Positions 16,165 through 50,924 of a stretch of 64,000 bases of DNA are shown piece by piece. Below the pieces are notes generated by a model. The model ran no database searches. It saw only the letters and a list, made by a program, of their open reading frames with translations, and was not told where the DNA came from. Position 1 is the first letter of the stretch. Each line of letters begins with the position of its first letter. This DNA is from a virus (taxonomy: Duplodnaviria > Heunggongvirae > Uroviricota > Caudoviricetes), in the IMG/VR virus record IMGVR_UViG_3300046524_000235; one strand, given 5' to 3'. The translations under genes and the position numbers were made by a program.

Positions 16165-18063
16165 ATGTCAAATAACGGCTTTTACGTACCATACCAACCT
16201 CCTCCTATTCCAGGAACTTCCGGTCAGCTGCCGGGAGCAGGCAATTTTGCAACTGCAGGGAGTCCTTGGTTCTCGGTCTCGAATCAATTCTTACCGAGAA
16301 ATCTTCACGATGTAATCAGATGGGCTAAGTACATCACCGTTCAATCACCGGTGACGACTGAGGTCATCCGTAAATTTGCAACGTATCCTATTACTGAATT
16401 TGTAGTACGTACAAAATCAGATGCTACGAAACGCAAGTACGAAGAAGTATTCAAGAGTTTCAAGCTTAAATCAGCGCTTCACAATATTGGCTTCGAGTAT
16501 TACACAGTAGGTAACGTATTTATCTCTATCTACTTTCCTATTCACCGTACGCTGCACTGCCCACTTTGTAATGGTAATACCTCTGCTAAAGCTGCAGAGT
16601 TCACACAGTTCAAAAACTACGAATTCGTAGGTAACTGCCCTCATTGTGATGCCAAAGGCGTTACGTTTACACGTAGAGACGCTAAGTCAATGAACGTGGA
16701 AGATATGAATCTGATTCAATGGGATCCGATCAATATCAACGTTAACTTCAACCCTATCACTGGCGAATACGAATACTTCTACAAGATTCCAAACGACGTT
16801 AAACGTAAAGTTCGTGAAGGGGATAAGCTATTCGTGAACAGTGTTCCGTGGGGATTTATTGAAGCTGTAAAGAATAACCAAGACTTCAAGTTCGATAAGA
16901 ATAATCTGTTCCACTTGCAGAATCTATCCGCAGGCCAACAGATTAATGGCGTTGCCGTACCTCCGCTTATTTCACTATTCTACCTTGTTTTCTATCAGGC
17001 AACGCTTCGTAAAGCAAACGAGTCTGTAGCTACTGACTTTATGTCTCCGCTTCGTGTGATTTTCCCGCAAGCTCAGACAGCTAACAGCGATCCTGTGTCA
17101 CAGATCAGTCTACGTAACTTCGTAGAACGTATGCAGGCTAATTTGGTCAAGCATAAGCAAGACAATAACCACGTTGTAGTTGCGCCAGTACCTATCGGTT
17201 ACCAAGCTATTAGCGGTGAAGGCAAGAGTCTTCTCGTAGCTTCTGAAATCCAACAAGCTGAAGATTCAATTCTTCTGGCTCTTGGCGTTTCGAGAGAGTT
17301 GCTTGCAGGTACGACTAACTGGACTAGTTCAACGACTGGACTTCGTCTGTTAGAAAATACTATGCTTTGCTATACCGGTCAGATTGCCGATCTTATTACT
17401 TGGATCATGGCTCGTGTATCAAAGTACCTGAACCTTGAGACTTGTGATGTTGATCTTGCACCGTTCAAGCTAACTGACGACCTGAATCTACAACAAATGC
17501 TTATCCAAGCAGTTCAGTCAAACAATGGTTCACTGTCAAGCCTGTACGAATCCTTCGGTATGAACTTTGGCGAAGAGCTTGACAAGATGCGTGAAGATGC
17601 TATTTCTCGTGCTGTTAGCGAAGTTAAGACGAAGCTCGAAGTTGATCAAAGCACGTACTTGGCTGCTCGTGAAACTGGGGATTCGTTTGACCGTAACAAC
17701 GACTATAAAACAGCTCTAGCTAAGGCTCAGCAAATTGCTGAACAGCTTTATACTGCTGACGATGGTACGAAACGTGCTATACTTAACCGTCTAAAATTAG
17801 AAGATTATGCGATGTTCATGCTCGTCGCTAAACTTCTTGAAGAGTACGCAGAAAATCAGCAGGCCCAAATGGCTATGCAACAGGTTGGACCGGATGGTAA
17901 ACCGATTCCAGGACAACCGGGTCAGCAAGCACCGGCCGGGCCGGGCGGAGAAGAAAAGGCTGCTGACGAACCAACAAATGGGGCCGGTAGTCCAGAACAT
18001 CAAAATGGATCTGGAGAAGAGAAGCAAAACGATACTTCTAGCGGCCCTGCTGAACAACAGTAA
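16165..18063 (+). CDS. Portal protein (with Zn-ribbon-like insertion)
   Basis: 632 aa, first gene of late block; helical portal-like architecture with Q/P/G-rich C-terminal tail; CPLC...CPHC insertion. Assigned from context and remembered resemblance. Confidence 0.65.
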   Translation: MSNNGFYVPYQPPPIPGTSGQLPGAGNFATAGSPWFSVSNQFLPRNLHDVIRWAKYITVQSPVTTEVIRKFATYPITEFVVRTKSDATKRKYEEVFKSFKLKSALHNIGFEYYTVGNVFISIYFPIHRTLHCPLCNGNTSAKAAEFTQFKNYEFVGNCPHCDAKGVTFTRRDAKSMNVEDMNLIQWDPININVNFNPITGEYEYFYKIPNDVKRKVREGDKLFVNSVPWGFIEAVKNNQDFKFDKNNLFHLQNLSAGQQINGVAVPPLISLFYLVFYQATLRKANESVATDFMSPLRVIFPQAQTANSDPVSQISLRNFVERMQANLVKHKQDNNHVVVAPVPIGYQAISGEGKSLLVASEIQQAEDSILLALGVSRELLAGTTNWTSSTTGLRLLENTMLCYTGQIADLITWIMARVSKYLNLETCDVDLAPFKLTDDLNLQQMLIQAVQSNNGSLSSLYESFGMNFGEELDKMREDAISRAVSEVKTKLEVDQSTYLAARETGDSFDRNNDYKTALAKAQQIAEQLYTADDGTKRAILNRLKLEDYAMFMLVAKLLEEYAENQQAQMAMQQVGPDGKPIPGQPGQQAPAGPGGEEKAADEPTNGAGSPEHQNGSGEEKQNDTSSGPAEQQ

Positions 18064-18076
18064 GAAAGGATAATAA

Positions 18077-18373
18077 ATGGCTTCAAAAGACGGCGTTACA
18101 AATGGACTCAGTCCTTCTGAACCAATTACGTTTCCGGGCTTCGGCCCGAAACAGGTTGATGAAGGTGATTTTAATAACTACAGAGTTAGATACGCTCAAA
18201 TAGATATTATGGACCCAGGCTCAAGAGCAGAGCTTGAAATCATTGAAACAAAAGCAGTTAAGGGACAAGGGGTTATTATCCTGACGAAGGATAAATTCAC
18301 CTTCATGGATAAATACTATATGGTAGTAAGCTACCTGGAATTAGAGACACGAGATGCCGACACCAGCCGATAA
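18077..18373 (+). CDS. Hypothetical protein
   Basis: 98-aa ORF with AAGGA RBS between portal and RNAP. Confidence 0.6.
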   Translation: MASKDGVTNGLSPSEPITFPGFGPKQVDEGDFNNYRVRYAQIDIMDPGSRAELEIIETKAVKGQGVIILTKDKFTFMDKYYMVVSYLELETRDADTSR

Positions 18374-21300
18374 TCTACAACTTATCTTTTCATCACCTAA
18401 GGAAATGCGCACAAGAGTTGACGCTTCCTTAATGCAGGGCATCGCTTCTCAATTCCCTATCGAGGGTAAGAACTACATTCTTACTCTTGAGGATCTTCGT
18501 ACAGAGCCTAAGGAATTCACTCATCTTGACGAAAAGGATGCAATTCTTAAGTCAAAGTCTCTTGCATATCCAATCAAGGGCCACATTAAGCTTATTGACA
18601 AAACTACTGGAAAAGTTATTGACGAAAATAAGAACTTTTCGTTGATGGATGCATTCCACATTACTCCAAAGCACACAATGCTTTACAAGGGTAATAACTA
18701 CTCAGTTGCTAACCAGCTTCAGCTTAACCCCGGTGTTTACACTCGTAGTAAAGAAACTGGTGAACTAGAATCTCACTTCAACACTGGTTCTGGTCGAAGC
18801 TTCTCAATTACGCTTGATCCACAGACATTCCAGTTTTCAGTTCATCCTGCAAGCTCGTCTTCAAGCATTCCTCTTGGACCTCTGGTTTCAAGAGTTTTTG
18901 GCATTGGTCCAAAAGAAGTAAGCCAGTACGTACCTGCTCAGGTTTGGGAAGCTAACCTTGCTTCTTCAGCAGGTAAAGAGCAGAAGATCATCAACGATCT
19001 ATACGCCAAGCTTGTATCTACTGGTAAGCAAAAGCCTACTGCAAGTCTTGAAGAGAAGATTATGCAACTCCGTGAATCAATGGAGGCATCATCACTTTCT
19101 CCTCAGACAACTCTGGTTACGCTTGGTAAGTCACTTGGTGCTGTAAATTCAGAAACCATTCTCCGTGCAATGCGTAATCTTGTACAAGTTCACTCAGGTG
19201 ACCGTGAAGAAGACAATCGAGATTCTCTGCAATTTAAGCGTGTTCAGAATCTGCCTGATTTCATCCGTACTCGTTTCAGCAAGCACGAAATGCTTCCAAG
19301 CATTCGTCGTAAGCTGCTAGCTGGACTAGACAAGACTAAGAATCCGTCTGTACGTGACGTAGTGGTCAGCAAGCCCTTTAACAAGGTTATGACGGGCTAC
19401 ATCATCGACTCTAACCTCGTATCTACCCCTTCGGAAACTAACCCGCTGGAGAGCCTGGAAAGCGTTGGAAAGGTCACTGTACTAGGTGCCGGTGAAGGCG
19501 GTATTGCTTCAGACCGTGGAGTACCTATGTCAGCACGAGACATCGATCCGTCACACCTTGGCATTATCGATCCGAGTCGTACTCCTGAATCTGGTCACGC
19601 TGGTATTGACCAACGTTTCACTATTTCTGCTCGTCGTGATGATAGTGGTAATCTCTATTCACGAGTTCTTGATAAACAGGGCAAGCAACACTATTTGTCA
19701 GTCCAAGAAATGATGACAAGCACAATTGGTTTCCCACATCAAGAAGGGAAGAAGACTGTGCAAGCTCAGGTTCGTGGTGCACTTAAAGAAGTTCCAGTAA
19801 GCCAAGTTGATTACTGGCTGGCAGATACAACTGACATGTACACTATTACGACTAACCTCGTACCGTTCCTGAACAGTAATCACCCAGGTCGTCTAACGAT
19901 GGCCGGTAAAGCTATTCCTCAGGCACTGTCACTTGTAGAACGTGAAAAGCCACTTGTACAGACAGTAAATGGTCAAGGCGTAAGTTTTTCAAAAGCTATC
20001 GGCAACGTTATTAGCACTGTTTCTCCTGTTGCAGGAAGCATTTCGCACATCACTAAGTCACAGATTCATATTAAAGACGATGATGGTAGGACTCATAAAG
20101 TAGACCTCGTTAAGAATCTTCCATTCAACATGAAGGGTTTCCTTGATGATGAAAAACCTCTCGTTAAGGTCGGTGACAAAGTGAAGGAAGGCCAGCCTAT
20201 CTCTGATAACAACTATACGGTTGACGGAGAGTTGGCTCTTGGTAAGAACCTTGAAGTAGCGTACATGCCATATAAAGGCTACAACCACGAAGACGGCTTG
20301 GTTATTAGCCGTTCATGTGCCGATAGTCTTAGCAGCCATCACGCTTATAAGGTTGACTACTCTGTACAGCCAATCTCTACTATGAGCAAGACTCTGCTGG
20401 TAAGACACTTTTCTGGCAAGTTCACGAAAGAACAGCTTGAAAAATTGGATGAACGTGGTTTTGCTAAGGTTGGTGCAGTTCTTAATCATGGCGATCCGGT
20501 ATATGCTGTACTTGAAAAACGTGAACCTACTTCTGAAGACAGAATGTTGGCTCGGCTTCACAAGTCACTCGTTAATCCATTCCGTATTGCTTCAGAACTA
20601 TGGACCCACGAAGAGAACGGCACAGTAGTTGATGCACACACAGAAGGTAAGAATATTCGTCTTCTAGTGCGTTCAGTAAAACCTCTTGAAATTGGAGATA
20701 AGCTGACAGGCCTGCACGGTAATAAAGGTATCGTTTCAAAGATTCTTAATGACAATGAAATGCCTTATAAGAAAGAATCTGGTCAACCAGTTGATATTCT
20801 TTTGAACCCTGCTTCTGTTACTTCTCGTATTAACCTTGGACAGCTAATGGAAACTGCTGCTGGTAAACTTGCTAAAGTTACTGGCAAGACATACATGGTT
20901 CACAACTTCAGCAAGAACAGTAACGTTTCTGATCTAAAGAGAGAACTAGATGCAGCAGGCGTAAGTGATACTGACATGATGGTTGATCCGAAGACTGGTA
21001 AAGACCTTGGCAAGATTCTTACAGGCCCTCAGTACTTTCTGAAGTTGTACAAAACTACTGACCAAAACTGGTCTGCTCGGAATACGGGTGGCTACGATAA
21101 CGTACTGCAACCTACCAAGGGCGGTGAAGAAGGTTCTAAATCAGTTGGCTACATGGAAATGCTTGGTCTTCTTGGCTCTAATGCTCGTAAGAACCTTAAA
21201 GAAATTGCAACGCTTAAGTCTCAGGAAAACTCAGAATACTGGACGAAATTTAAGTTCGGTCAGGCTCTTCCAAAGCCACGTATGACCTTTGCTACCGAGA

Positions 21301-21755
21301 AGTTTCTCGATTATCTTAAAGGTGCAGGTATTAAGACAAGTATTGATAACGGAAAGCTTACAGCGTCACCGCTTACCGATCAAGATATTATCGGAATGTC
21401 AAATGGTGTAATTAAATCACCTGAACTTCTAAGTGCCAAGAACCTTGAGCCTGAAAAAGGTGGTCTTTATGACCCAGGTACAACTGGTGGATTGAAGGGT
21501 AAGAACTGGACTCACTACGAACTAGCTGAAGCTCTTCCAAACCCAGTGTTTGAACGTCCTATCAAGAGTCTGCTAGGTCTAAAGTCAAGCGAATATGATG
21601 GTATTATCCAAGGCTCAATAGGTATCAAGAAGTTGGATGATGGTTCATTTGCCCTGCACAATACGTCTAACGGTCAGCACATTAAAACTATAAAAGTGAA
21701 TAGTGCTAACATAAGTAGCGAAGCGGAAGGGCATAATGATCACGAATCCCAATAG
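18354..21755 (+). CDS. rpoB: Phage multisubunit RNA polymerase: beta subunit fused to beta' N-terminal segment
   Basis: Beta motifs DPSHLGIIDPSRTPES, GKNLEVAYMPYKGYNHEDG, GDKLTGLHGNKGIV, LNPASVTSRINLGQ, YFLKL, SVGYMEM; then beta'-like LEPEKGGLYDP and HYELAEALPNPVF. Confidence 0.92.
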   Translation: MPTPADNLQLIFSSPKEMRTRVDASLMQGIASQFPIEGKNYILTLEDLRTEPKEFTHLDEKDAILKSKSLAYPIKGHIKLIDKTTGKVIDENKNFSLMDAFHITPKHTMLYKGNNYSVANQLQLNPGVYTRSKETGELESHFNTGSGRSFSITLDPQTFQFSVHPASSSSSIPLGPLVSRVFGIGPKEVSQYVPAQVWEANLASSAGKEQKIINDLYAKLVSTGKQKPTASLEEKIMQLRESMEASSLSPQTTLVTLGKSLGAVNSETILRAMRNLVQVHSGDREEDNRDSLQFKRVQNLPDFIRTRFSKHEMLPSIRRKLLAGLDKTKNPSVRDVVVSKPFNKVMTGYIIDSNLVSTPSETNPLESLESVGKVTVLGAGEGGIASDRGVPMSARDIDPSHLGIIDPSRTPESGHAGIDQRFTISARRDDSGNLYSRVLDKQGKQHYLSVQEMMTSTIGFPHQEGKKTVQAQVRGALKEVPVSQVDYWLADTTDMYTITTNLVPFLNSNHPGRLTMAGKAIPQALSLVEREKPLVQTVNGQGVSFSKAIGNVISTVSPVAGSISHITKSQIHIKDDDGRTHKVDLVKNLPFNMKGFLDDEKPLVKVGDKVKEGQPISDNNYTVDGELALGKNLEVAYMPYKGYNHEDGLVISRSCADSLSSHHAYKVDYSVQPISTMSKTLLVRHFSGKFTKEQLEKLDERGFAKVGAVLNHGDPVYAVLEKREPTSEDRMLARLHKSLVNPFRIASELWTHEENGTVVDAHTEGKNIRLLVRSVKPLEIGDKLTGLHGNKGIVSKILNDNEMPYKKESGQPVDILLNPASVTSRINLGQLMETAAGKLAKVTGKTYMVHNFSKNSNVSDLKRELDAAGVSDTDMMVDPKTGKDLGKILTGPQYFLKLYKTTDQNWSARNTGGYDNVLQPTKGGEEGSKSVGYMEMLGLLGSNARKNLKEIATLKSQENSEYWTKFKFGQALPKPRMTFATEKFLDYLKGAGIKTSIDNGKLTASPLTDQDIIGMSNGVIKSPELLSAKNLEPEKGGLYDPGTTGGLKGKNWTHYELAEALPNPVFERPIKSLLGLKSSEYDGIIQGSIGIKKLDDGSFALHNTSNGQHIKTIKVNSANISSEAEGHNDHESQ

Positions 21756-26703: not shown

Positions 26704-28065
26704 TTAGAGATTTACACGGTCTAGTTCGCCGTCAGCGAAACCATTGTAAACTGGGAATCTGATTTGACCGCCTGGAACGCTAGGAGGATATGCCTTAACT
26801 TGGATAAGCTTCTCATTGAACAGATCAGGAGTCTTCCAAGCATTGATACGAGTATCTCTATCAAAGCCTGTTCCAACCTTACCAACCATTCTTCCTGAAG
26901 CATCCGCAAGAATCAACGCACCCATGCTGTCTTTGGGATTGCCTTTGATGTCGATTTCTTGTTGTTGACCAATTACCTTCAAGTTGTACGTTACGTAGTT
27001 CTTGACTTTGTATCGTACTGATTCTGTCTCTGGCTTAGCATAGTCTGCAACGATTAAGCCTTCTCCCTTTTGCTCTTTAATCCTGTCTAGATACTTGTTG
27101 ATGTTCTCAACGCCGTGTTCTAGATGAGGAGAGAACAGAAGATCTGGCTCACCATAAGCTTGTTCGAATTTCTGAATGTATTCGACTTTATCTTTATACG
27201 TTGGCAGGTCTGGATTCTTAACATCGATAAGCACTGCACGAACTGGACCTTTTTCCGCCTGAGTTGCAATTGAACGTGGAGGAAGAGAATTCAGAATACC
27301 GGAAACAGTAGGGTGAGACTCCGTTTCAGACTTTGCAAGACCTGTATGTACAAGCTCTACCGCAAATTGGTTTCCAGCAAATTCTGGCATCGGTTTAGCT
27401 AGGTGAGGAAGCTGTGCTGAACGCTCAGGAAATCCACCTTTTACGCTAGGTCTGCGGGAATGATAAGTTAGAGAACCATCAGGCTGTACGGTAAGTACGA
27501 AGTGAGCACCATCCCACTTCTTTGAAGCTACAGGATGCTCAAGCTGAGTCCAATCTCCCTCTACGTATTTGTGACGAACGTAGGTATCGATTGAAGCTTG
27601 TTTTTGAATATGTTCGAGATATGGATTAATGCCTTCCACGAATAACTGGCTCCCAAGAGGACCGATCCCGCGAAATGATTGAATCTCTGCCCTGATTTCT
27701 TCAGGAGTCCGCTTGTCGATCAGATTACTAATTGTACCATATTTCTCTTTCAAATGTCTTGCTTGGGCAAGCATCGTCGTGGCAGTAGATTCGTCAAAAC
27801 GACCGTAATGGCCTTGTACGAGATTATCACGAAGAGTTTCCCATCCAGCAGACTCCACGGCTTCAGGTGAGTGAAAACCCTGTGAAGCCATGTGTTTCGC
27901 AGCCATACCTGCTACTGAGCGCTGGATAGGTCTAGAAAAAAGAGTGACAGCCGTCATCCACTTGTACAGTTCTTTCTCGTCGCCTTTAGACAAGTCAAAG
28001 CCAAGACTCTCTGGGCTAGCAGGTTCTTTAAGGTCTGTCGCTACTTTTTCTAGGTATTTATTCAT
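26704..28065 (-). CDS. Helix-hairpin-helix (HhH-GPD-like) domain fused to ATP-dependent DNA ligase
   Basis: N-domain with FRGIGP HhH motif; ligase motifs I (SKKWDG), III (FAVEL), IIIa (AVLID), IV (EGLIV), V (YKVK) and OB-fold IRFPVY; starts MNKYLEKVA. Confidence 0.9.
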   Translation of the reverse strand: MNKYLEKVATDLKEPASPESLGFDLSKGDEKELYKWMTAVTLFSRPIQRSVAGMAAKHMASQGFHSPEAVESAGWETLRDNLVQGHYGRFDESTATTMLAQARHLKEKYGTISNLIDKRTPEEIRAEIQSFRGIGPLGSQLFVEGINPYLEHIQKQASIDTYVRHKYVEGDWTQLEHPVASKKWDGAHFVLTVQPDGSLTYHSRRPSVKGGFPERSAQLPHLAKPMPEFAGNQFAVELVHTGLAKSETESHPTVSGILNSLPPRSIATQAEKGPVRAVLIDVKNPDLPTYKDKVEYIQKFEQAYGEPDLLFSPHLEHGVENINKYLDRIKEQKGEGLIVADYAKPETESVRYKVKNYVTYNLKVIGQQQEIDIKGNPKDSMGALILADASGRMVGKVGTGFDRDTRINAWKTPDLFNEKLIQVKAYPPSVPGGQIRFPVYNGFADGELDRVNL

Positions 28066-28448
28066 GTTTTACGACTTGCGTTAAGGTGACGCCACATTGT
28101 GTTATCTACTTTAACTTCCTCAGATTTTTGTTTATTGCCACCATGAGCGAGAAACGGGGCTAGAGCTAAACCTAAAGCTCCGCCTACAGCAGCTGTTCCA
28201 GCTGTAACTTTAGCAGTTCTTGCGGGATTTTTAAACCATTGTTTTCCTGCTGCTGTAGCTGCCGTAACTGCTCCAGTTGCTGCAAACCCTGCCGGAATAA
28301 CAGCTAAGGCTTTAAGGTGATGATGATGGTCATTCTCTTTTGCAAACTGTTTCCTTACTTCTGGATCAGGCACATGGAAACGCCCATTATCATAGTGAAT
28401 ACCCTTAACGTATTCAAAAGCTATTTTTTCTAGATATTTGTTAGTCAT
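28062..28448 (-). CDS. Tagged small protein with Gly/Ala-rich hydrophobic helices
   Basis: Starts MTNKYLEKIA; two Ala/Gly-rich hydrophobic segments. Confidence 0.7.
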   Translation of the reverse strand: MTNKYLEKIAFEYVKGIHYDNGRFHVPDPEVRKQFAKENDHHHHLKALAVIPAGFAATGAVTAATAAGKQWFKNPARTAKVTAGTAAVGGALGLALAPFLAHGGNKQKSEEVKVDNTMWRHLNASRKT

Positions 28449-30372
28449 TTTTCATCAAACCTTTTACTTCATCAAACAACTCTTCCTTCGTATCTGAGTT
28501 TTCTGACAGATACTTGTCAATCGAGTACGGCGTCTTGCCCCATAGTGGCTTAGGGTGTACGCTGTGGAAATGCTCAACTAATACTTTACGTTCTTCTTCT
28601 GGCAAGTGTGCATGTGAACCAAATCTAACTGCACGGCCTACTACTTGGTTAATCTTACTTGGGTTAAAGTGTGGCTCAAGTACCTGTACACGCTTCGTTC
28701 CCTTTGAATCCAGTCCTTCTGAACCTGAAGATGAGATCAACAGAATTTTCTTCCTACCAGAGTTGTAGTCCTTGACTAACTGGTCCTTCTCTGCTCTTGA
28801 CAGTGAACCGTCATAGACAGCGTGGTCAATCTTCATTTCTTGAAGTTTTTTGGAGTAGTCTCTTAGTCCAGCATCAAGATAATTTGAATACACAAGGGCT
28901 TTGAAGTTCTTATCCTCCGACATACCCTTTTGGAGGCTCTCTACGGCTTTGAGAATCTTAGGTGAGTACTCAGCCTTACCGTCGCTTGTCAAATGCCTGT
29001 AGCCGTTAGAAACCTGCCTTACGCCTGTTGAGAAAGCATTGAGGTTAGCCTTTTCTTTCTTGTCCAGTGGTAGATTGTGACGGATCTTCATTCTCAGCAA
29101 GAACGGAATCTTACCTTCAGCGAACTTGTAATACTTCTGCTGCTCTTTGGACATCGGTACTTCAACGATAGTCTCTGTCTTCTTCGGGAAATGCTTTGCT
29201 GCTTCCGGATCATCTTTGCTATCGTAGAAGCTTACGTACTGATTGAGAATTTCTTTAAGCTCTTTTCTACGGTCAAGTCTACGCACTGCTTCAGGCTTGG
29301 CTCCTAGAAGTCTATCTTTGAAGCCCGGCTTAATAATTTCTTCCTTCGTGTAACGATCATCCATTTTCTTTGATTCTTCAGGAAGAACGTTATCATTGGC
29401 CGCAATGTTTACAAGAGCGGATATATCAGAGAGTTTATTGTAATTGCCAGTAGCAGTAGCAAGTAAACGACGATCAGCACCGCTGATAATATCTCGGAGT
29501 TCTCTAGTACGTTTAGTGTTCGTATTACGGAGCCTGTGAGCTTCGTCTGCAACTGCGATAGAGTAATCATTTTTACGTAATTTGTGAGCATCAATAACAG
29601 CTTTCTCATAGGACATTACATCCAGTCGATCTCTGTCCAGTTTGATATTGTGTTTCTTGAGTTCCTTATCAACGTTCGTGACGAGACTGGCAGGAGCAAT
29701 GACCAACGCCCGCTTCTTCGGGTACTTCTCTTGATAGCGACGTACTGCCTCAAGGAACGTCTTAGTCTTGCCGCTACCAAGGCTGTGATGAAGGACGACG
29801 CCGTGTTCTTTATCCAAATGATCAAGGGCATCAGTTTGGTGGGGACGTAGATCATCTTTCTGTTCCTTCTTCTTGGCAATTTTTTCTAGGTATACGTTAC
29901 CACCAGCATAGTCGTCAAGCGCCCAAGCTCGTTTCTCAATAGAAGATTTGCGAGTTAAATATGGGCTCGTACTCTTACCCATACCAGTAATGTTTCTGAG
30001 AATCCAAGATTTTTCGTTTTCTTTAGTCGGTGATTTCTTCAGCAAAAACTTCTCACCATCTTTGGTGAAGATTACAAGCATAGTCTCTGTACTATGTGGA
30101 GCTACAACAGCTTTACGAACCCAATCTAAATACGTAGTTCCAGCACCGTATTGGCCTTTAGGGATTACTACCTTCTTGCTCAATGCGTAAGCACGATCAT
30201 GTACAGGCTGTTCAAAGACGCCAATGATTTCGCCTGGCTTCGGCATATCTTTAAGCGTTGCAAAAGAATACGCCTTGTCCTTGTGGACAAGCCTGAGGTC
30301 ATAATGAAGGCCCATGACATCAGCTTCGTGTCGTTGCCGGGTAAATAGAAATTCGTCGTTTGGTTGTAACAT
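28441..30372 (-). CDS. LigD-type 3'-phosphoesterase domain fused to SNF2-family helicase
   Basis: RQRHEA...HYDLRL...PVHDRAY...IPKGQYGAG (PE domain); HSLGSGKT, ADEAH, ATAT, QVVGRAVR (SF2/SNF2). Confidence 0.88.
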   Translation of the reverse strand: MLQPNDEFLFTRQRHEADVMGLHYDLRLVHKDKAYSFATLKDMPKPGEIIGVFEQPVHDRAYALSKKVVIPKGQYGAGTTYLDWVRKAVVAPHSTETMLVIFTKDGEKFLLKKSPTKENEKSWILRNITGMGKSTSPYLTRKSSIEKRAWALDDYAGGNVYLEKIAKKKEQKDDLRPHQTDALDHLDKEHGVVLHHSLGSGKTKTFLEAVRRYQEKYPKKRALVIAPASLVTNVDKELKKHNIKLDRDRLDVMSYEKAVIDAHKLRKNDYSIAVADEAHRLRNTNTKRTRELRDIISGADRRLLATATGNYNKLSDISALVNIAANDNVLPEESKKMDDRYTKEEIIKPGFKDRLLGAKPEAVRRLDRRKELKEILNQYVSFYDSKDDPEAAKHFPKKTETIVEVPMSKEQQKYYKFAEGKIPFLLRMKIRHNLPLDKKEKANLNAFSTGVRQVSNGYRHLTSDGKAEYSPKILKAVESLQKGMSEDKNFKALVYSNYLDAGLRDYSKKLQEMKIDHAVYDGSLSRAEKDQLVKDYNSGRKKILLISSSGSEGLDSKGTKRVQVLEPHFNPSKINQVVGRAVRFGSHAHLPEEERKVLVEHFHSVHPKPLWGKTPYSIDKYLSENSDTKEELFDEVKGLMKND

Positions 30373-30397: not shown

Positions 30398-30434
30398 TAA
30401 AAAAAGCCCAGACACATTATAACATGTCTAAGCT
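30398..30434 (-). terminator. Intrinsic terminator of 30445..31572, overlapping promoter-like elements
   Basis: Minus strand AGCTTAGACA-TGTTATAATG-TGTCTGGGCT followed by a T run. Confidence 0.7.
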
Positions 30435-30444
30435 ATTTTAAAAC

Positions 30445-31572
30445 TTAAGCTGTAAGTCTCTGGTGAGTTTCAGCGATTCGAGCCTTGATAGTCTCTACTG
30501 ATGAGCTAAGAAGGAAGAACTCTAAATCTTGCTTAGCGTAAATCTCTTGTTCGAACGCTGGTTTGAATGTCTTGAACATTACGTCTTCAGGAGTCCAGCC
30601 AGTTACTTCTTGGATGATGCTGTCGTTGTACTTTTCATTGATCAGCTTATACTTAGAAGCGCCTTCTATCGCAACGTTGTAATCTTTGTATGTAGCACGG
30701 TTCCAACCCTCCCAATTTTTAAGCATGTGCTTTCTGGCAGTTTCTGGAAGTACTTTAGGATTGTGGAGTGTATTCCAGTCAGAAACCTGAAGATATGCAA
30801 CTGCTTGTCTAAAAAGATCACAACCGAAGTAATCGCCTGGGCCTACGTACCGTTTATTTTCATCGAGAAAGAAATTGTTGAAGCTAATGTACTTGCCAGT
30901 CAGAAGCCAGCTTGTAATTTCTCCAGCATCTCGATATCGTGAATATAGCATATCCGAAAATGCTCTTCCACTCATCCCGAGTGCCTTAAAAACAAGATCA
31001 GCACTATGCGCTACATTGAAGCTTACCGGACCTCGTCCTGGGATGTTTTCTTCATATTCCAGATACAGAGACTCGCTTCCAATCTTGAACCCAGAACTCT
31101 TTAGTACAATATTGATTAAATCGTAAAGACCATCGTAACCGAAAAGAATGCTCTGAAGATTAATATCTACGCTGATGTGTCCTCGTGCCGTATCCTTCGC
31201 ATCTCCGAAGTGATACAATTTGATTTCAATACCTTCATTCATAAATGAAGTGCATTTATCAGTACGTCGCACTTGTTCAGGAGTTGAACTCAGGCCGAGC
31301 CTTGTTATAATTGCGGTAATAACACGTTCGTTAGATGCCCGTCTATAACTGTAACCATCTAAAGTATAGGAAAGAGGCTGAGTTGAAACTTCTGATCTGG
31401 TGGGAACGTAAAACTCTTTTAGTTCACGCAAATTTATACCGATACCAATTTCTGAACCAGCGTCTCTTACTACTTGATTTACATGGCGACGTATGAGACT
31501 CCGCTGATCATTGGTTTTAGGGCGTGGGGTCCAGTAGTCAGCTGGAGTTGCAGTTTGTGAAATATTAACCAT
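30445..31572 (-). CDS. Hypothetical protein (C-half resembles phage nucleotidyltransferase-like families; catalytic residues not seen)
   Basis: 375-aa ORF; GFKIGSESLYL...VFKALGM pattern; no G-D-x-D found. Confidence 0.5.
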   Translation of the reverse strand: MVNISQTATPADYWTPRPKTNDQRSLIRRHVNQVVRDAGSEIGIGINLRELKEFYVPTRSEVSTQPLSYTLDGYSYRRASNERVITAIITRLGLSSTPEQVRRTDKCTSFMNEGIEIKLYHFGDAKDTARGHISVDINLQSILFGYDGLYDLINIVLKSSGFKIGSESLYLEYEENIPGRGPVSFNVAHSADLVFKALGMSGRAFSDMLYSRYRDAGEITSWLLTGKYISFNNFFLDENKRYVGPGDYFGCDLFRQAVAYLQVSDWNTLHNPKVLPETARKHMLKNWEGWNRATYKDYNVAIEGASKYKLINEKYNDSIIQEVTGWTPEDVMFKTFKPAFEQEIYAKQDLEFFLLSSSVETIKARIAETHQRLTA

Positions 31573-31989
31573 ATGACATTACTCATTAAAGACAATGAAT
31601 TCTTAAAAGACTGGGCAAAGCTAGCCGGTGTCTCAATCGAATTCAAAGATGCAACGATGCTTCCGGGAACAGCATGGATAGCTGGACTCCCAATCGACAT
31701 TGCTATTTATAAAGGCTACCTTGTTTTAAACGCTGTTGGTGAGTTCGGCGGAACAGCAAAGACACTTGCGAAGAGTAAAAATAAAGGTAGAGGTACTTTC
31801 AAAAACTTATACCAACACCTCCCAGATTTACTGAAAAAGTACGGGCTGGGGGATCGTATCTATCTGACCCCGCTCAGCCCCGTTTGGGAAAAGAACTACA
31901 AACTAGTTGAAGCTACAGAGCCGCTGAAAGGGCACTGGTATTTCTTGCAAGTTGAGCAACCGGATCAAAGCCAAGAGTGCCAGCCTTAG
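31573..31989 (+). CDS. Hypothetical protein, possible GNAT-like fold
   Basis: KNKGRGTFKNLYQHL resembles acetyl-CoA binding motif A; weak. Confidence 0.45.
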   Translation: MTLLIKDNEFLKDWAKLAGVSIEFKDATMLPGTAWIAGLPIDIAIYKGYLVLNAVGEFGGTAKTLAKSKNKGRGTFKNLYQHLPDLLKKYGLGDRIYLTPLSPVWEKNYKLVEATEPLKGHWYFLQVEQPDQSQECQP

Positions 31990-32275
31990 CCATACGCACT
32001 TTGTAGTCTTCGAGAAGACCTTGATCTGCAGGGTGCTTTCCCTTGACGGTAGAGAGGACCGGAGTGGTCTTCAGGTCACGGAGAAAGGTCTCGTGAACAA
32101 CCACGATTTCAGCCTTGCTTCCGTGGACATTTCCAGATTCCTGGTAGCAACTCGTACGACGACGCTCACGCTCAGCTTCGACGCTAAACTGTTGAGCAGA
32201 GTAAATGTAACCGTCGTCAACCCATCCCATTCCGGGAATGTACTCTTTCATGCAAACTCGGTAAACTGCAAACAT
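31913..32275 (-). CDS. Hypothetical protein (paralog of 32298..32570)
   Basis: Shared YRV.M.E...G.G...DGYIYS N-terminus. Confidence 0.65.
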   Translation of the reverse strand: MFAVYRVCMKEYIPGMGWVDDGYIYSAQQFSVEAERERRRTSCYQESGNVHGSKAEIVVVHETFLRDLKTTPVLSTVKGKHPADQGLLEDYKVRMAKAGTLGFDPVAQLARNTSALSAAL

Positions 32276-32297
32276 AGCTTGTCCCTATGTGGTTGAG

Positions 32298-33645: not shown

Positions 33646-35472
33646 ATGACAGAACGTTACACAACAGCCGGTGCACTGAAGCTAAAGTCCGAACTACCTA
33701 CTCAAGAAGCGCGGGATAACTATGACGTGTATCGCCCTCTTGACAAGAAAGCTATTTCAGATCTCGTCAATGTCCTTTTAAAGCATGGCGGTACAAATAG
33801 TCACGAGACTATAAATGATCTTGGTAAAAAGTTCTTCGATAAAGCTACGGCCATCGGTGCTACAACTCCGCTAACTGACTACATCAACGAAAGTGATGAG
33901 CGACAAGCTATTATCGATGAATTTGAAACAAAGGTTCATCAGATTTTTGCTAAGAAACTTCCAAAGACTAAAGAGAACGATGAGCTTGGCGCATTGACTG
34001 GCGAATACAACGGAAAAATTGAAAAGCAAAATTTGGACTATCTTCTTTCTAAAGGTTCTACGGCCGCAAAAATGGCACGTACAGGAGCCCGAGGAAATCC
34101 AACTCAATTGGCTACTGGTACCTCAACTCCTTTGATGTCTATAAATTTGCGCGGTGAACTTGTTCCTTATGTTATCAAGAGTTCATTCGCTAAAGGGATG
34201 TCTCCGTCTGAGATGCTTGCAATGAGCTATATGGGCCGTGGTTCTACCGTACTGTCCCAGCTTTCAACTGCTCTTCCTGGCGCTCTATTCAAAGAACTTT
34301 CTCCGACTACTTTTCATGAAGTAATCACGGTAGATGACTGCGGAACAACTAATGGTATTCTGCTTTCCATCACAGATAAGAAAGGTGCTATTGGCCGGTA
34401 TGAGGCTGGCACTAATACTCTGATTGACGAACACTACTACAAAGAACTTGTTAATTCTGGCAAGAAGGGTATTAAGGCTCGTAGCTCACTTACATGTGAA
34501 GCTCATCAAGGCATTTGCAAAAAGTGCTATGGCCTAATGGCTAACGGTAAGCTTCCAGAAATTGGTGAAAACGTAGGTGTAATCGCTGCACAATCAGTTT
34601 CAGAAGTTCTTACGCAGTCGATGCTTTCAACCAAACACAAGGCGTCTGTTGGCGCTCGTAAAGGTAACTCATACGAACAAGCTTCAAACTTGCTTCGTAA
34701 CCCTGCCGAGAACTTCAAAGACGAAGCAACGATCACGAATATCAATGGCGTAGTTTCAGCAATTAAACAAACGCCTCTTGGTGACCATCAAGTATTCGTT
34801 AATGAACAGATGCACTTCGTACCCAGAGTACAGGGCCTGAAAGTAGCTGTAGGCGATAACGTCCTGAAGGGTGATGCTCTTTCAACTGGCGTTGTTAATC
34901 CTCGTAAACTGGTAGGCCTAAAGGGTCTAGGAGCCGGTCGTATTCACATGGCTCACGAACTACGTGGTATCTACGGTTCAGACCTTGATCCACGTCACTT
35001 CGAGTTGATTGCAAAGAATCTTATCAAGCACGTAGAAGTGCAAGATCCAGGTGAGACAGGCTTTCTCCCAGGCCAGAAGATTGACGTAAACACAGTTCAG
35101 AAGTACCTTACGAACACCGCTGGTGAAGTATCTCTTGACAAGGCTGAAGGAAAGCTTCTTGCAAGAGGCGTTCATGAACTTACTGCTGGTACATTGCTAG
35201 ATGGCAATCATATCAACGATCTCAAGAGCCACGGCGTTAAAACTGTTCACGTAGCCAATACTGGTCTGACAGTTACTCCGATTGTACCTGGTCTTAAGAC
35301 AGCTAAGCTTCTTGATGACAACTGGGTTTCAAAACTCTCATTCTCAGGTCTTAAGAATACGCTTCGTGAAAGCGCTGCAGTTGGTGCAGAATCAGATGTA
35401 CACAGCACAGAGCCTATCACTCCATACATTCTTGGTAGTGAATTTGGTGAAGGTCCAGGAGGCCAATACTAA
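33646..35472 (+). CDS. rpoC: Phage RNA polymerase beta' C-terminal segment
   Basis: TGARGNPTQL, DDCGT, RSSLTCEAHQGICKKCYG zinc site, GENVGVIAAQSVSEVLTQSMLSTKH trigger-loop region. Confidence 0.92.
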   Translation: MTERYTTAGALKLKSELPTQEARDNYDVYRPLDKKAISDLVNVLLKHGGTNSHETINDLGKKFFDKATAIGATTPLTDYINESDERQAIIDEFETKVHQIFAKKLPKTKENDELGALTGEYNGKIEKQNLDYLLSKGSTAAKMARTGARGNPTQLATGTSTPLMSINLRGELVPYVIKSSFAKGMSPSEMLAMSYMGRGSTVLSQLSTALPGALFKELSPTTFHEVITVDDCGTTNGILLSITDKKGAIGRYEAGTNTLIDEHYYKELVNSGKKGIKARSSLTCEAHQGICKKCYGLMANGKLPEIGENVGVIAAQSVSEVLTQSMLSTKHKASVGARKGNSYEQASNLLRNPAENFKDEATITNINGVVSAIKQTPLGDHQVFVNEQMHFVPRVQGLKVAVGDNVLKGDALSTGVVNPRKLVGLKGLGAGRIHMAHELRGIYGSDLDPRHFELIAKNLIKHVEVQDPGETGFLPGQKIDVNTVQKYLTNTAGEVSLDKAEGKLLARGVHELTAGTLLDGNHINDLKSHGVKTVHVANTGLTVTPIVPGLKTAKLLDDNWVSKLSFSGLKNTLRESAAVGAESDVHSTEPITPYILGSEFGEGPGGQY

Positions 35473-36254
35473 TGGCAGCTACAGGATCAGTTATCGATAC
35501 CTCGATTAAACAGATTTGTAGTACTACGATTAACAATTTACTTCAACAGTTCTTTGCTAATACCTTGGGCAAAGAAACAGACGTTGTAAAATTGATAATG
35601 GCTCAAATACAAACTGAGAGCCATTTCAATGTCAACGCTCAAGGTCCGTCCCTTAACCCTGTAAACTCATCTGGGGCAAGGGATTACATCAATGCTAGTG
35701 CTGTACAATCTGTGATTGGAAAGGGTATTAGCCAGCAATCGGTAAATATCGATCAAGGCTTACGAGCTTGGGGCGTTATGCAAAGTATGGGTTGGAACCA
35801 CGTCAAAGGCGGATCTCAGAAGCTAGGTAAGTGCCTAGTTGAAATAGCGAGACCAGACTTAGTTTCAAGACTTTGTGTAAACCCAGGAGAAAGTCTAGCA
35901 GCAAAGCTCAACGGTCAAAGTACAGTTGAGGACCAAATCCTTGCTGGTTTAGTTGTTCTTGAACAGAAGTACAAACTTGTGAAGCAAGCAGGTAATAAGT
36001 TTACAATTGGTCAGTTTACTTATGACAGTCGTATGCAAGCAACATTCCGAGGATATATCGGATTGGCTTCTAACGACAAGGGTAACGGTAGTTCTTCCGA
36101 AGCATACGTATCTACTATATACTACGGAGCTAACTTTACAAAAGCCAATGGGCCGGGTGGAGTAGCAGTAGCTAATAAGAGTGCAGAAGGCGCTGCAGCA
36201 GGACCCGCAATCACCGTTGCCTCAGGCGATAATAAGCATCCAGATGGGTGCTAA
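35472..36254 (+). CDS. Lysozyme-like (lytic transglycosylase-type) virion muramidase
   Basis: AQIQTESHFN catalytic-Glu motif and WGVMQ motif. Confidence 0.65.
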   Translation: MAATGSVIDTSIKQICSTTINNLLQQFFANTLGKETDVVKLIMAQIQTESHFNVNAQGPSLNPVNSSGARDYINASAVQSVIGKGISQQSVNIDQGLRAWGVMQSMGWNHVKGGSQKLGKCLVEIARPDLVSRLCVNPGESLAAKLNGQSTVEDQILAGLVVLEQKYKLVKQAGNKFTIGQFTYDSRMQATFRGYIGLASNDKGNGSSSEAYVSTIYYGANFTKANGPGGVAVANKSAEGAAAGPAITVASGDNKHPDGC

Positions 36255-40810: not shown

Positions 40811-41125
40811 ATGAATAAGTACCTAGAGAAAATCGCATCCGCAAAAGCTGTAGCTGAATCCATAACTGGTTTCGGCAAAAGTTTTGCGAAGGGCTGGAAA
40901 CGAAGCTCAACAACTTCTAAAGTTGGTCTGGGTATGTCTGCTGCCGGTCTCTCTCTAGGCGCTGCTAATTATAGTAATAGCCTAGAGAATAAGCTTGACA
41001 ATAAAAAACGTGGCGTACTTGAGGCGCAATCGCTGAACGAGCTTAAGGGTATTTCAGAGGCTCTTAGGAAAAAGCCTAAGGTAACCGTAAATCTGAAATT
41101 AGTCCCTGACCAAAATGCAAAATAA
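40811..41125 (+). CDS. Tagged small virion protein
   Basis: Starts MNKYLEKIAS; Gly-rich hydrophobic segment. Confidence 0.65.
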   Translation: MNKYLEKIASAKAVAESITGFGKSFAKGWKRSSTTSKVGLGMSAAGLSLGAANYSNSLENKLDNKKRGVLEAQSLNELKGISEALRKKPKVTVNLKLVPDQNAK

Positions 41126-41924
41126 GTATTTAGAAAAAATAGCATCAGACAAGAACAAAGATAAGTCTAAAGTTGTTTCAGCAGTAGGAGCCTCCTTGCT
41201 TGGAGGCTTTTCTGCGGGAGTAGCCGGTGGTGCCCTACAGCATGCAGTATCTAGAAAAGTTGTATCTGCAATATCAGCTTCTCACAGCGATTCTGGAGCA
41301 GATCACCACACCCTTAGAAAGTTTATGAAAGATAATGGTTTACATAAAACCACTACTTTCAATACTAGAAAGCACAATGTAGATAAAATGACTTTTTCAA
41401 AGAATCCTTTGGGAAAGATTTATAAACACTTAGCTAGTAATGACGCTCCTGGACCTGCGTTTCTACGTACCAGAGGGGTAGGTGCTCAAAAAGACTTTGT
41501 AGTAGGATTAAGAAATGGTGGAAAGACTGTTAAGAACGCTGACGTTCTAATGCATGAACTTGGCCACGCCAAAGACTTCCAAAGTTACGGAAAGCTTAAA
41601 GCGTTGGCTCCAATTGCCAAAATGCCCGGAGTAAGTAGTGTTGCTACCATTGCAGCTCTTTCAAATGACAAGACTCGTGATTACGCTCCAGCCGTTGCAG
41701 CTATTCCTGGCGCACTAACTTTAAGAGAAGAAGCTGCTGCTAATTACCATGCATACAAAGGAATTAAAGCCCACAAGGGAGCTGCCGCTGCTAATAAGTA
41801 TGTACGCAAGCTTCTACCTTCGCAAATGGGCTCTTATGCTGTTGGGGCTGCAATCCCAGTAGCCGGTGCATATCTTGCCAAGAAAATTATGGACAAGTGG
41901 CATCCGAAGAAAGAGTCAAAATAA
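41115..41924 (+). CDS. Tagged protein with zinc-metallopeptidase motif
   Basis: Starts MQNKYLEKIAS; LMHELGHA (HExxH) plus downstream REEAAAN; flanking hydrophobic helices. Confidence 0.65.
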   Translation: MQNKYLEKIASDKNKDKSKVVSAVGASLLGGFSAGVAGGALQHAVSRKVVSAISASHSDSGADHHTLRKFMKDNGLHKTTTFNTRKHNVDKMTFSKNPLGKIYKHLASNDAPGPAFLRTRGVGAQKDFVVGLRNGGKTVKNADVLMHELGHAKDFQSYGKLKALAPIAKMPGVSSVATIAALSNDKTRDYAPAVAAIPGALTLREEAAANYHAYKGIKAHKGAAAANKYVRKLLPSQMGSYAVGAAIPVAGAYLAKKIMDKWHPKKESK

Positions 41925-41947: not shown

Positions 41948-43462
41948 ATGCTAACTAAACTAATCGATACGTCTTCTTTTTACCGTGAAGAACCACAGGT
42001 AACTATTCTCGATCCCAAAGATCTTACAGGCAGTCTTATTAAGCAGGCTACGGATTCTCGCATTCAAGAATTCGCTTCTAAACTAACGCCCATTCAGGGC
42101 AAGACGTATCTTCACATTCTAGCTATGGGTGCTGGAGAGTTTTATGGTGCAAACCGTAATGCTGACTACTTCCCAGAAAGTAGCCTCATTGATTACCACA
42201 ATACCTTTGAGACTGCTCCTGCCCATATTTTCAGAAACCACGTAAACAAAAATCCCGAAATCGCTATTGGTCAAGTTGTGTACTCTGTCTACAACGACAG
42301 AATGCACCGCGTTGAGCTTATCGCTGAGCTTTGGAACGACAAGGCTCCAGACATCGTTGATCGTATCGAAAGCGGTGACTGGCCAAAGACTTCAATGGCT
42401 TGCCGTACACCTTTCGATGTTTGTTCAATTTGTGGTAACAAAGCTCGTACCCGTGAAGAGTATTGTGAGCATCTAAGCGAACAGTTGGGTAAGGTTTTCC
42501 CTGATGGTCGTAAGGTAATGGCGCTTAACTTGGCTCCATTGCGATTCTTCGACATCTCTATTGTATTTCGTCCAGCAGACGTAACTAGCGCAGTTCTACA
42601 GAAAGTAGCATCTGAAAGCGAAGTGATTGGTTCAGTGGATGAGGCGCTAATGGCTGGTCTAAATGACCTTCCGTTACAGAAGAGTGCTACTCTTAAAAAG
42701 CTTTCAGAATTAACGAAGGAGATTGATGGCGATGTTGTATCTATCGATTCTAATCTTGATAATCTTGTATCACGAGTTAGTGATCCGCAAGGATCGGTTA
42801 TCGATGTTCTTCGAAATTATAAGCTTAATGAGACTTTTAGTACCTTTGCTCATCTTGGCATTAGCCCTTCGATTGGTTTTCTCGCTGAACTGATTGCTAG
42901 AAAATTGATGGGTGAAGAAGGGCGCGGCATTGGCCCAATGGCTGCTGCATATTTTGATAAGGTTGGTCTTACTGCTATTCCCGAATTCGACCGTGATTTC
43001 GGTGAAATTACAGAACCCAACATCGGTATCGTTCATGCTATGCTTCCTCATATGCAGGATGCCTCGTATCTTCCACAGTATGTTGAGGAACGTGTATCGC
43101 TGAACAAACAGGCTTCGACTTACGGTTATGTACAGGGTACTAATGTTGGCTTTGTCGGCAACGGTCCTCACATCGAACCTACGATTTACGAAAAGTTCCG
43201 TGAACAGAATCTCAAGTCAGAAGAAGGGAATAAGTCAAGTTTGATGAAGATGCTTACTGCCATTGCTGCTATCGGCGGAGCTGCTCTAGCTGCTAAGTGG
43301 TACATTACCCAAGCAATAGAGCGGAAAATGAAAGAGCAAGAATTGAACAAGGCTTCAGATGGTGTTAAAATAGTTTTAGTTAAATCTGCTTCTGACTATA
43401 AGCTGACTTACAAACTCGCCAAAACAGCGATGGTTAAGTTGGTTCAGAAGAAAAAGAATTGA
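41948..43462 (+). CDS. Prohead maturation protease (assemblin/HK97-like fold) with C-terminal extension
   Basis: FRNH, TSMAC and RPAD as putative His/Ser/Asp; CSICG...CEH zinc site; upstream of scaffold and capsid genes. Confidence 0.8.
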   Translation: MLTKLIDTSSFYREEPQVTILDPKDLTGSLIKQATDSRIQEFASKLTPIQGKTYLHILAMGAGEFYGANRNADYFPESSLIDYHNTFETAPAHIFRNHVNKNPEIAIGQVVYSVYNDRMHRVELIAELWNDKAPDIVDRIESGDWPKTSMACRTPFDVCSICGNKARTREEYCEHLSEQLGKVFPDGRKVMALNLAPLRFFDISIVFRPADVTSAVLQKVASESEVIGSVDEALMAGLNDLPLQKSATLKKLSELTKEIDGDVVSIDSNLDNLVSRVSDPQGSVIDVLRNYKLNETFSTFAHLGISPSIGFLAELIARKLMGEEGRGIGPMAAAYFDKVGLTAIPEFDRDFGEITEPNIGIVHAMLPHMQDASYLPQYVEERVSLNKQASTYGYVQGTNVGFVGNGPHIEPTIYEKFREQNLKSEEGNKSSLMKMLTAIAAIGGAALAAKWYITQAIERKMKEQELNKASDGVKIVLVKSASDYKLTYKLAKTAMVKLVQKKKN

Positions 43463-50866: not shown

Positions 50867-50924
50867 TCAAACACAGTTCCAAACAAGGCCTCCTTCGGGA
50901 GGCTTTTGCTTTTAAAATACTGTC

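Follow-up and report, generated by a model that had tools for sequence, protein, structure and literature searches.

Phages inject RNA polymerases, ADP-ribosyltransferases, and anti-restriction proteins. In T4, the proteins IPI–III carry the capsid-targeting sequence (CTS) MKTYQEFIAE, and Alt is likewise a head-packaged protein that enters the cell by injection (PMC8442874; PMC5512222; Mullaney & Black 1996 as cited there). A survey of the polyvalent proteins of phages and conjugative elements presents these proteins and P1 DarB as head-carried SWI2/SNF2 multidomain proteins acting on incoming DNA (Iyer et al. 2017, PMC5512222). The domains listed in it include neither LigD-type 3'-phosphoesterase (PE) nor ATP-dependent DNA ligase; "LigD" has 0 occurrences, and the one "ligase" passage shown deals with ATP-grasp RNA ligases. 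In the literature that we searched, there was no report of a virion-borne ligase or PE in any phage, and none of an injected DNA end-repair set. Here, we describe a three-gene operon (P0001–P0003) that may encode such a set. It lies in a 64,000-nucleotide stretch, referred to as the window, of the Caudoviricetes record IMGVR_UViG_3300046524_000235. The window covers bases 2542-66541 of a complete 181,435-bp IMG/VR phage record, and all searches described as genome-wide cover the whole record.

The operon encodes a PE fused to an SNF2 ATPase, a small hydrophobic protein, and a DNA ligase preceded by a helix-hairpin-helix (HhH-GPD) fold, and two of the three proteins begin with a nine-residue tag shared with head-region genes. 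The reading that we prefer is a repair kit that would be made late, with P0002, the ligase, and the SNF2 fusion loaded into the prohead through the tag and co-injected with the DNA; the PE would then clean ends, the ligase would seal them, and the SNF2 motor would translocate. We give this reading a probability of roughly 45%. What is shown comprises the identities of the domains, the tag and where it occurs, the synteny, the fusions, and the presence of the SNF2 orthologue in virions of the phage Arash. Packaging of the SNF2 protein is likely and packaging of the ligase is plausible; the packaging of P0001–P0003 themselves, any cleavage, the repair role, and its substrate are inferred.

Domain Composition of the Operon

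The original prediction described a PE, an SNF2 motor, an HhH-GPD-like domain, and an ATP-dependent ligase in one operon, and this composition is confirmed by profiles, catalytic motifs, and a fold match. The features are as follows.

28441..30372, minus strand: P0001, fusion of PE and SNF2, 643 aa
30001..30363, minus strand: LigD-type PE domain, P0001 residues 4-124 (PF13298, PDB 3P43)
29875..29898, minus strand: internal tag relic NVYLEKIA, P0001 residues 159-166, at the PE/SNF2 joint
28609..29853, minus strand: SNF2-family ATPase core, P0001 residues 174-588 (PF00176, PF00271, PDB 1Z63)
28062..28448, minus strand: P0002, tagged 128-aa protein with two Gly/Ala-rich hydrophobic segments
26704-28065, minus strand: P0003, 453 aa, consisting of tag, HhH-GPD-fold domain, and ligase
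28039..28065, minus strand: N-terminal tag MNKYLEKVA, P0003 residues 1-9
27571..28038, minus strand: HhH-GPD-fold domain, P0003 residues 10-165 (homologue profile, AF2, Foldseek)
27592..27627, minus strand: joint NPYLEHIQKQAS, P0003 residues 147-158, degenerate tag relic before the ligase
26707..27558, minus strand: minimal ATP-dependent DNA ligase (NTase and OB domains), P0003 residues 170-453 (phrog_114 at 4.8e-19)

The three minus-strand open reading frames (ORFs) overlap stop to start, first by 8 nt and then by 4 nt, and are thus translationally coupled. At the N-terminus of P0001, the LigD_N family (PF13298) scores 31.7 and 33 bits in two scans, against a cut-off of 31.1, and a solved archaeal PE (PDB 3P43) matches residues 4-124 with an E-value of 9.6e-6. 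The catalytic residues of 3P43 are retained (QRH13-15, H23-Y-D-L-R27, and H58..Y62), and so is GQYGAG. Judged by this fold match and these residues, the N-terminal domain is assigned as a full LigD-type PE. The remainder of P0001 is an SNF2 core, with SNF2-rel_dom (PF00176) at 4e-20, Helicase_C (PF00271) at 1e-15, and intact motifs: Walker A GSGKT at residue 199, DEAH at 276, and motif VI QVVGRAVR at 576. Its best PDB match is 1Z63, the SsoRad54 core (6e-11), and it also gives a partial match to vaccinia NPH-I. The Pfam scan of P0001 returned LigD_N and helicase families only, with no methylase and no zincin-like peptidase domain. A second SNF2-like helicase is encoded in the replication region (9977-11779, minus strand; phrog_62 at 2.6e-71). 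It is just 24% identical over 140 aa to the SNF2 part of P0001, and we therefore regard the SNF2 protein with the tag as a separate, virion-associated lineage.

The Gly/Ala-rich hydrophobic stretches of P0002 span roughly residues 45-68 and 80-105, and the protein has no Pfam or PHROG match. Its tagged homologues adjoin the kit in the related locus L017 and lie within the head module in L018.

Residues 10-165 of P0003 are not recognised by Pfam. They have 352 distant homologues, whose profile matches the endonuclease III structure 9NZC at an E-value of 5e-4. The AlphaFold (AF2) model of these residues reaches a pLDDT of 95.6; it was built on 75 distant homologues, and a model from 9 close relatives, with a pLDDT of 52, was discarded. 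Each of the 40 Foldseek matches listed (ranks 1-49) is an HhH-GPD glycosylase or a homologue of one, such as Mag2; the list is led by EndoIII, NTHL1, OGG, and TAG with a probability of 1.0 and a TMq of 0.55-0.62. The hairpin reads GIGPLG at residue 133. The HhH-GPD catalytic residues are absent: by alignment and spacing, Leu137 stands at the lysine position of EndoIII and an invariant Lys155 at the aspartate position, which is expected about 20 residues past the hairpin. Because of these two replacements, the modelled domain, which also stops early, is probably a non-catalytic DNA-binding handle rather than a glycosylase. The family of its homologues (A3) consists mostly of stand-alone proteins of 150-250 aa, and a few members are fused to LigT/2H phosphoesterase, ParA-like, or protein-kinase domains.

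The ligase part of P0003 carries motif I as K183-W-D-G, motif III as FAVELV at 234, motif IV as EGLIV at 335, motif V as YKVKN at 352, and motif VI as RFPVY at 436, and its OB domain matches the Chlorella virus ligase. It falls below the Pfam ligase cut-offs (PF14743 at 16.7 bits vs 28; no match to PF01068), and some of its homologues do carry PF14743 or PF01068. By its motifs, it is classed as a divergent member of the minimal Chlorella-virus-type ATP-dependent ligases. The ESM Atlas gave sub-significant leads only.

The operon does not represent classical non-homologous end joining (NHEJ), since neither Ku (PF02735) nor the LigD primase-polymerase (PF21686) is present in the 181-kb genome; the original prediction had noted the lack of Ku for the window, and this extends to the whole record. 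The genome also lacks LigA and any second clear DNA ligase; a weak PF01068 match occurs in an 811-aa frame.

Conservation and Fusion of the Three Enzymes

L015, L016/L034, L017, and L025, with identities of just 47-58%, retain the gene order PE, SNF2, ligase. The ligase family comprises 146 proteins, mostly stand-alone ligases of 294 aa, and it also includes fusions. At least seven proteins are PE-ligase fusions with several distinct joint types (including P0042, P0049, P0066, P0083, P0110, and P0120), and P0044 and P0275 are SNF2-ligase fusions, one of them 793 aa long. Four triple fusions (P0276 and P0278-P0280; 1060-1355 aa), which came from a search of longer proteins, carry PE, SNF2, and ligase in the order of the genes described here. 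A scan of viral contigs with P0276 found nothing. The family also includes one GNAT-ligase fusion and directly tagged ligases. The conserved order and the pairwise and triple fusions argue that PE, SNF2, and ligase form one functional unit, as had been proposed from this operon alone. Running from separate genes up to a triple fusion of 1355 aa, this natural series illustrates cleanly how functionally linked modules become welded together.

The slot before the ligase is variable. In P0006, P0009, and P0014-P0019, a module of about 150 aa (…FxPDL(S/T)PEEM…) replaces or follows the HhH domain, and in P0014, a GNAT acetyltransferase occupies that slot. The ligase thus accepts varied tagged N-terminal modules. 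Among cultured phages, a tblastn search with P0003 gave a single weak match, to an Alicyclobacillus phage.

The Putative Head-Cargo Tag

Exactly eight ORFs of the genome start with the tag M(x)NKYLEKIA. Two of them are P0002 and P0003, and the other six lie among the head genes, flanking the protease, scaffold, and major capsid protein (MCP) genes. The landmarks of the structural region, which also contains a scaffold-like gene and tail genes, are as follows.

16165-18063: portal
18354-21755 and 33646-35472: two large subunits of a multisubunit RNA polymerase (RNAP)
41948..43462, plus strand: candidate head maturation protease (phrog_18299 at 6e-7; 44-46% identical to Gp222 of the phage Arash)
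47073-47966: MCP, in the head block

The tag is no product of chance, as the whole genome contains 13 occurrences of the core pattern [YF][LI][ED]K[IV] where 1.1 would be expected, and eight of these occurrences are N-terminal. The codons of the tag vary synonymously among the copies, so selection acts on the peptide. The shared tag claimed in the original prediction is thus upheld. A degenerate DNA pattern for the tag found 49 stretches on about 30 viral contigs, which yielded 83 distinct tagged ORFs. Together with the eight copies here, these give 91 sequences in which N, Y, E, and K are nearly invariant; the conservation ends sharply after Ala9, and position 10 is Glu in 14 of the 91. In the roughly 30 related contigs, nearly all tagged genes lie within the block from gp218L to the MCP or between the MCP and the sheath, and the remaining ones belong to the PE-SNF2-ligase module or adjoin it. 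At least four lineages have an SNF2 protein that starts with the tag, and the ligase tag is retained across relatives that are 63-99% identical. The tagged cargo of the relatives includes glycine-zipper membrane proteins. A literature search for the tag string gave no match.

The protease at 41948-43462 is a candidate for processing the tagged cargo. It has no Pfam match, the T4 gp21 family included, and a PDB sequence search with it was empty.

Two further observations concern the tag. One tagged protein of 436 aa (L033:6690-7997, minus strand) has a sub-threshold match to PARP/ADP-ribosyltransferases (E 3e-4), which would parallel the capsid-loaded Alt of T4. Additionally, the N-arm of the MCP (47124-47150, residues ~18-26) reads SFLDKIDQG, and SFIDKIDQG in Arash; it resembles the tag core [YF]L[ED]KI and is one of just four non-tag matches to that pattern in the genome. 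The tag may mimic a capsid-protein motif that is recognised by the scaffold or the protease.

Virion Evidence from Relatives

The closest cultured relative is the Salmonella phage Arash (OQ632216; 180.8 kb), whose head block is syntenic gene for gene. The SNF2 part of P0001 is 42% identical over 472 aa to Arash Gp217, its specific orthologue. In the virion LC-MS data of Arash, this "DNA helicase" was represented by 38 unique peptides and 1148 spectra (PMC10585845). The corresponding counts were 40/1210 for the RNAP beta' subunit Gp216, 36/1149 for Gp218, and 30/1333 for the capsid protein, while likely contaminant enzymes reached 2-6 peptides only (PMC10585845). Gp217 thus ranks with the most abundant proteins of the virion. 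Gp222, the homologue of the protease candidate, was also detected (PMC10585845). The SNF2 lineage is therefore that of a virion protein, and because the abundant Gp217 is untagged, the tag is not the sole route into the head.

A more distant SNF2 orthologue lies within the capsid module of the Pseudanabaena phage PA-SR01 (MT234670; L059:5575-7371). Its N-terminal extension of about 140 aa contains two copies of RRxFLKN, which are twin-arginine-like and may be a different loading signal.

The Arash data also bear on what SNF2 does. It could mainly be a cofactor of the virion RNAP, co-packaged with it and acting in recycling or release like RapA or vaccinia NPH-I, with the PE and ligase neighbourhood being secondary. 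The Arash gene for Gp217 directly follows the RNAP beta' gene with overlapping stop and start codons, and the two products have equal spectral counts. In the family described here, the module sits between two virion RNAP genes, and the partial PDB match is to NPH-I, a component of vaccinia virion RNAP complexes. Nevertheless, SNF2 has been fused independently with the ligase and with the PE, and this, along with the conserved gene order, ties it biochemically to the repair enzymes. A principal role as RNAP cofactor is in our view quite improbable, and the two roles are not mutually exclusive.

The tagged enzymes might instead act at or in the prohead during DNA packaging. T4 ligase is required to seal nicks that stall the packaging motor. 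The tag and the association with the head module would fit any head-localised role, and a ligase with a 3'-end cleaner would suit the repair of such nicks. The high copy number of SNF2 in mature Arash virions fits delivery better, and we consider action confined to packaging very improbable.

Tag-Like Joints Between the Domains

The original prediction placed tag-like linkers exactly between the domains. For P0001, this was correct, as NVYLEKIAK occupies residues 159-167; for P0003, the sequence NPYLEHIQKQAS is weaker, and the relatives P0007-P0012 read YKNKYLQKAA at this joint. The linkers had been taken for sites at which the head protease would cut P0001 and P0003, as polyproteins, into PE, SNF2, HhH, and ligase inside the capsid. 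Tag-like joints do recur, as at residues 159-166 of P0001, as YKNKYLQKAA in P0007-P0012, as YNRYLDKAAS in P0110, and as GKYIEKLA in P0280. Moreover, of the four internal matches in the genome to N[KPVIR]Y[LIM]..[IVL], three lie in P0001 and P0003. One of these three, INKYLDRIK at residue 324 of P0003, was rejected as a third tag, since untagged ligases conserve it directly ahead of motif IV, and it is thus native to them.

Split orthologues offer another origin for the joints. In L004-L006 and L007, whose ligases are 77-86% identical, PE and SNF2 are separate genes and SNF2 starts with MNKYLEKIA, while L003 carries the same fusion as P0001. A 13-nt difference at the PE/SNF2 overlap joins the genes in P0001 and L003 and leaves NVYLEKIA inside, preceded by the degenerate SPYLTRK tail of the PE domain (P0001 residues 136-142). 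As these orthologues show, the P0001 linker is the former N-terminal tag of a separate SNF2 gene, left by a recent fusion. At the joint of P0003, the spacing from tag to ligase equals that of directly tagged ligases such as P0098, and by comparison of these sequences, NPYLEHIQKQAS is interpreted as the scar of an older fusion; AF2 predicts it to lie within one long helix, which would not favour cleavage. In P0006, an extra module has been inserted, with tag-like joints on both sides. The joints of the triple fusions drift to YIEKLA, LLEKLS, LLEKVA, and LVKKAK, whereas the copies at N-termini hardly vary at N, Y, E, and K. For this reason, fusion scars with relaxed constraint account for the joints better than sites of obligatory cleavage would.

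One regularity points in the other direction. The PE is never N-terminally tagged, and a tag-like motif follows the end of every PE ORF that was read (the end in L017 excluded), including that of the stand-alone 155-aa PE of L007. This favours some function for the copies that are not N-terminal. On balance, the proposed cleavage at internal tags was not borne out, given that the P0001 linker is a fusion relic and that internal copies decay in the older triple fusions, and we regard the polyprotein model as unlikely.

Genomic Setting

Two short elements lie in front of the operon.

30405..30434, minus strand: 13-bp hairpin and T7 run between the upstream gene and P0001 (terminator-like scan)
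30434..30441, minus strand: TTAAAATA, promoter-like motif of putative function 5' of P0001, also found at structural genes

The terminator-like hairpin suggests that P0001–P0003 form a unit separate from the gene at 30445-31572 (minus strand). The motif TTAAAATA has 14 copies in 181 kb, 11 of them in the structural region, and nine of the 11 window copies are followed by a co-oriented start codon within 100 nt. Their window positions are 16131, 22112, 30434 (minus), 33615, 39119, 46543, 49599, 50912, and 56293, at 5-95 nt before the co-oriented starts of the portal, RNAP beta', head and tail genes, and P0001; the copy 5' of P0001 is the sole one on the minus strand of the window. TTAAAATA is a candidate late promoter core, and its occurrence at both P0001 and structural genes hints at shared late control, to which we give little weight. 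At window position 50912 and genome position 80412, a terminator-like hairpin precedes the motif and an ATG follows just 5 nt after it, so the leaders of these transcripts may be almost absent.

Two ORFs of the plus strand (31573-31989 and 31952-32296) were rejected as genes, as relatives keep a minus-strand ORF at 31913-32275 (MYAVYR...) instead. With these ORFs probably spurious, the minus-strand block would span ~32791 to 25964. A 260-aa ORF (35472-36254, plus strand) with no Pfam or PHROG match adjoins the RNAP beta' gene, where Arash has the SNF2 gene for Gp217. The "direct terminal repeat" of the record is merely an 86-bp assembly overlap and was not used for locating genome ends. When 24 kb were compared with cultured phages by megablast, no match was obtained.

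Proposed Loading, Delivery, and Repair

We read the operon as a conserved module of three enzymes that would heal and seal 3' ends of DNA, in a family of ~180-kb phages that are relatives of Arash and have an RNA polymerase in their virions. In the mechanism that we propose, at least P0002, the ligase, and the SNF2-bearing fusion would be synthesised late and loaded into the prohead via the tag. The proteins of the kit would enter the cell with the DNA and mend nicks or breaks in the incoming genome. The PE would convert 3'-phosphate or 3'-ribonucleotide ends into ligatable 3'-OH ends, and the minimal ligase would seal the nick, with the HhH-GPD-fold domain serving as the handle by which it binds DNA. 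Translocation on duplex DNA would fall to the SNF2 ATPase, which would either clear bound proteins or bring the enzymes to lesions.

The virion packaging foreseen in the original prediction has indirect support. It is favoured by the confinement of the tag to head and kit genes, by the likeness of the tag to the T4 CTS, and by the presence of the Arash SNF2 protein in virions. Several findings weigh against the mechanism. The orthologue observed in virions is untagged: Arash Gp217 has neither the tag nor a PE domain, and searches of the Arash record detected neither a PE nor a ligase of this family. The tag copy of P0001 is internal and no longer N-terminal. The ligase lacks the tag in most of its family, including the syntenic modules of L015, L016, and L025, so its packaging would be lineage-specific at best. 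For the tagged cargo genes at 41115-41924 and 44996-45421, cultured phages yielded no homologue, and the genome-wide count of TTAAAATA is about that expected from base composition, with no enrichment.

Some of these points would equally suit an ordinary intracellular module for repair or replication, acting on phage DNA in the cytoplasm, with the tag as a means of docking to a shared partner or as a by-product of gene shuffling. P0003 is the sole recognisable DNA ligase of the genome and could be a plain intracellular ligase, and most members of its family are untagged proteins of 294 aa. It is harder to reconcile such a module with a tag that is almost restricted to head-module genes across the family, with SNF2 being tagged in every tag-bearing lineage and having an orthologue among the major virion proteins of Arash, and with the retention of the ligase tag among the relatives noted above. 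We therefore hold the intracellular explanation to be somewhat unlikely and keep the packaged kit as the preferred one.

A broader version of the packaged kit would have a whole family of large soil phages load a modular repair kit, made up of a 3'-end cleaner, a duplex translocase, and a ligase whose DNA clamp is borrowed from the glycosylase fold, by a portable nine-residue tag and co-inject it against nuclease damage before gene expression, with modules freely fused and possibly re-separated by the protease in a polyprotein system. Taken in full, this version is rather unlikely, and anti-nuclease or circularisation roles are at this stage pure conjecture. If an injected end-repair set is real, it would represent a new class of counter-defence that mends nuclease damage rather than blocking it, and it could explain how some large phages withstand nicking or cutting defences during the earliest minutes of an infection. 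Two practical tools would follow as well, namely a short loading tag for non-T4 capsids and a compact pair of ligase and 3'-phosphoesterase.

Comparison with Known Systems

A particle-borne repair set has a counterpart among large eukaryotic DNA viruses, as the particles of the African swine fever virus carry repair enzymes. These viruses belong to an unrelated realm, and there is no homology in the loading mechanism. Vaccinia NPH-I is similar in being an SNF2 ATPase packaged with the virion RNA polymerase, with a partial sequence match only. The LigD and archaeal PE of NHEJ (PDB 3P43, 3P4H, and 5DMP) share with P0001 the PE fold and catalytic residues and the pairing with an ATP-dependent ligase, to which the PE is fused in relatives (P0042, P0110, and others). 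In contrast to LigD, the operon has no Ku and no primase-polymerase, its ligase is of the minimal Chlorella-virus-like kind, and an SNF2 motor is present instead.

Among phages, Arash is the nearest, with an orthologous SNF2 in the same phage family and the same head-module synteny; it differs in the lack of the tag and PE and in the position of the Gp217 gene directly after RNAP beta'. The concatenation of unrelated enzymatic modules recalls P1 DarB and the polyvalent proteins, as seen in the PE-SNF2-ligase proteins of 1060-1355 aa in relatives. P0001 differs from these in having no methylase partner and no zincin-like peptidase, and its modules are joined through tag relics. The tag itself is most like the T4 CTS. 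Both are short N-terminal leaders common to unrelated proteins that are encoded near head genes, they are identical in register at five of ten positions (M1, Y4, E6, I8, and A9), and the delivery of cargo with the DNA would also be shared. Unlike in T4, a gp21-family protease cutting after the leader Glu was not found; the candidate has no Pfam match, and Glu10 is present in the minority of tags given above. The cargo also differs, as it would consist of DNA-repair enzymes and many glycine-zipper proteins, with packaging and cleavage presumed. Leader loading in T4, a head-borne SNF2 protein in P1 DarB, and concatenated modules in polyvalent proteins are all known principles.

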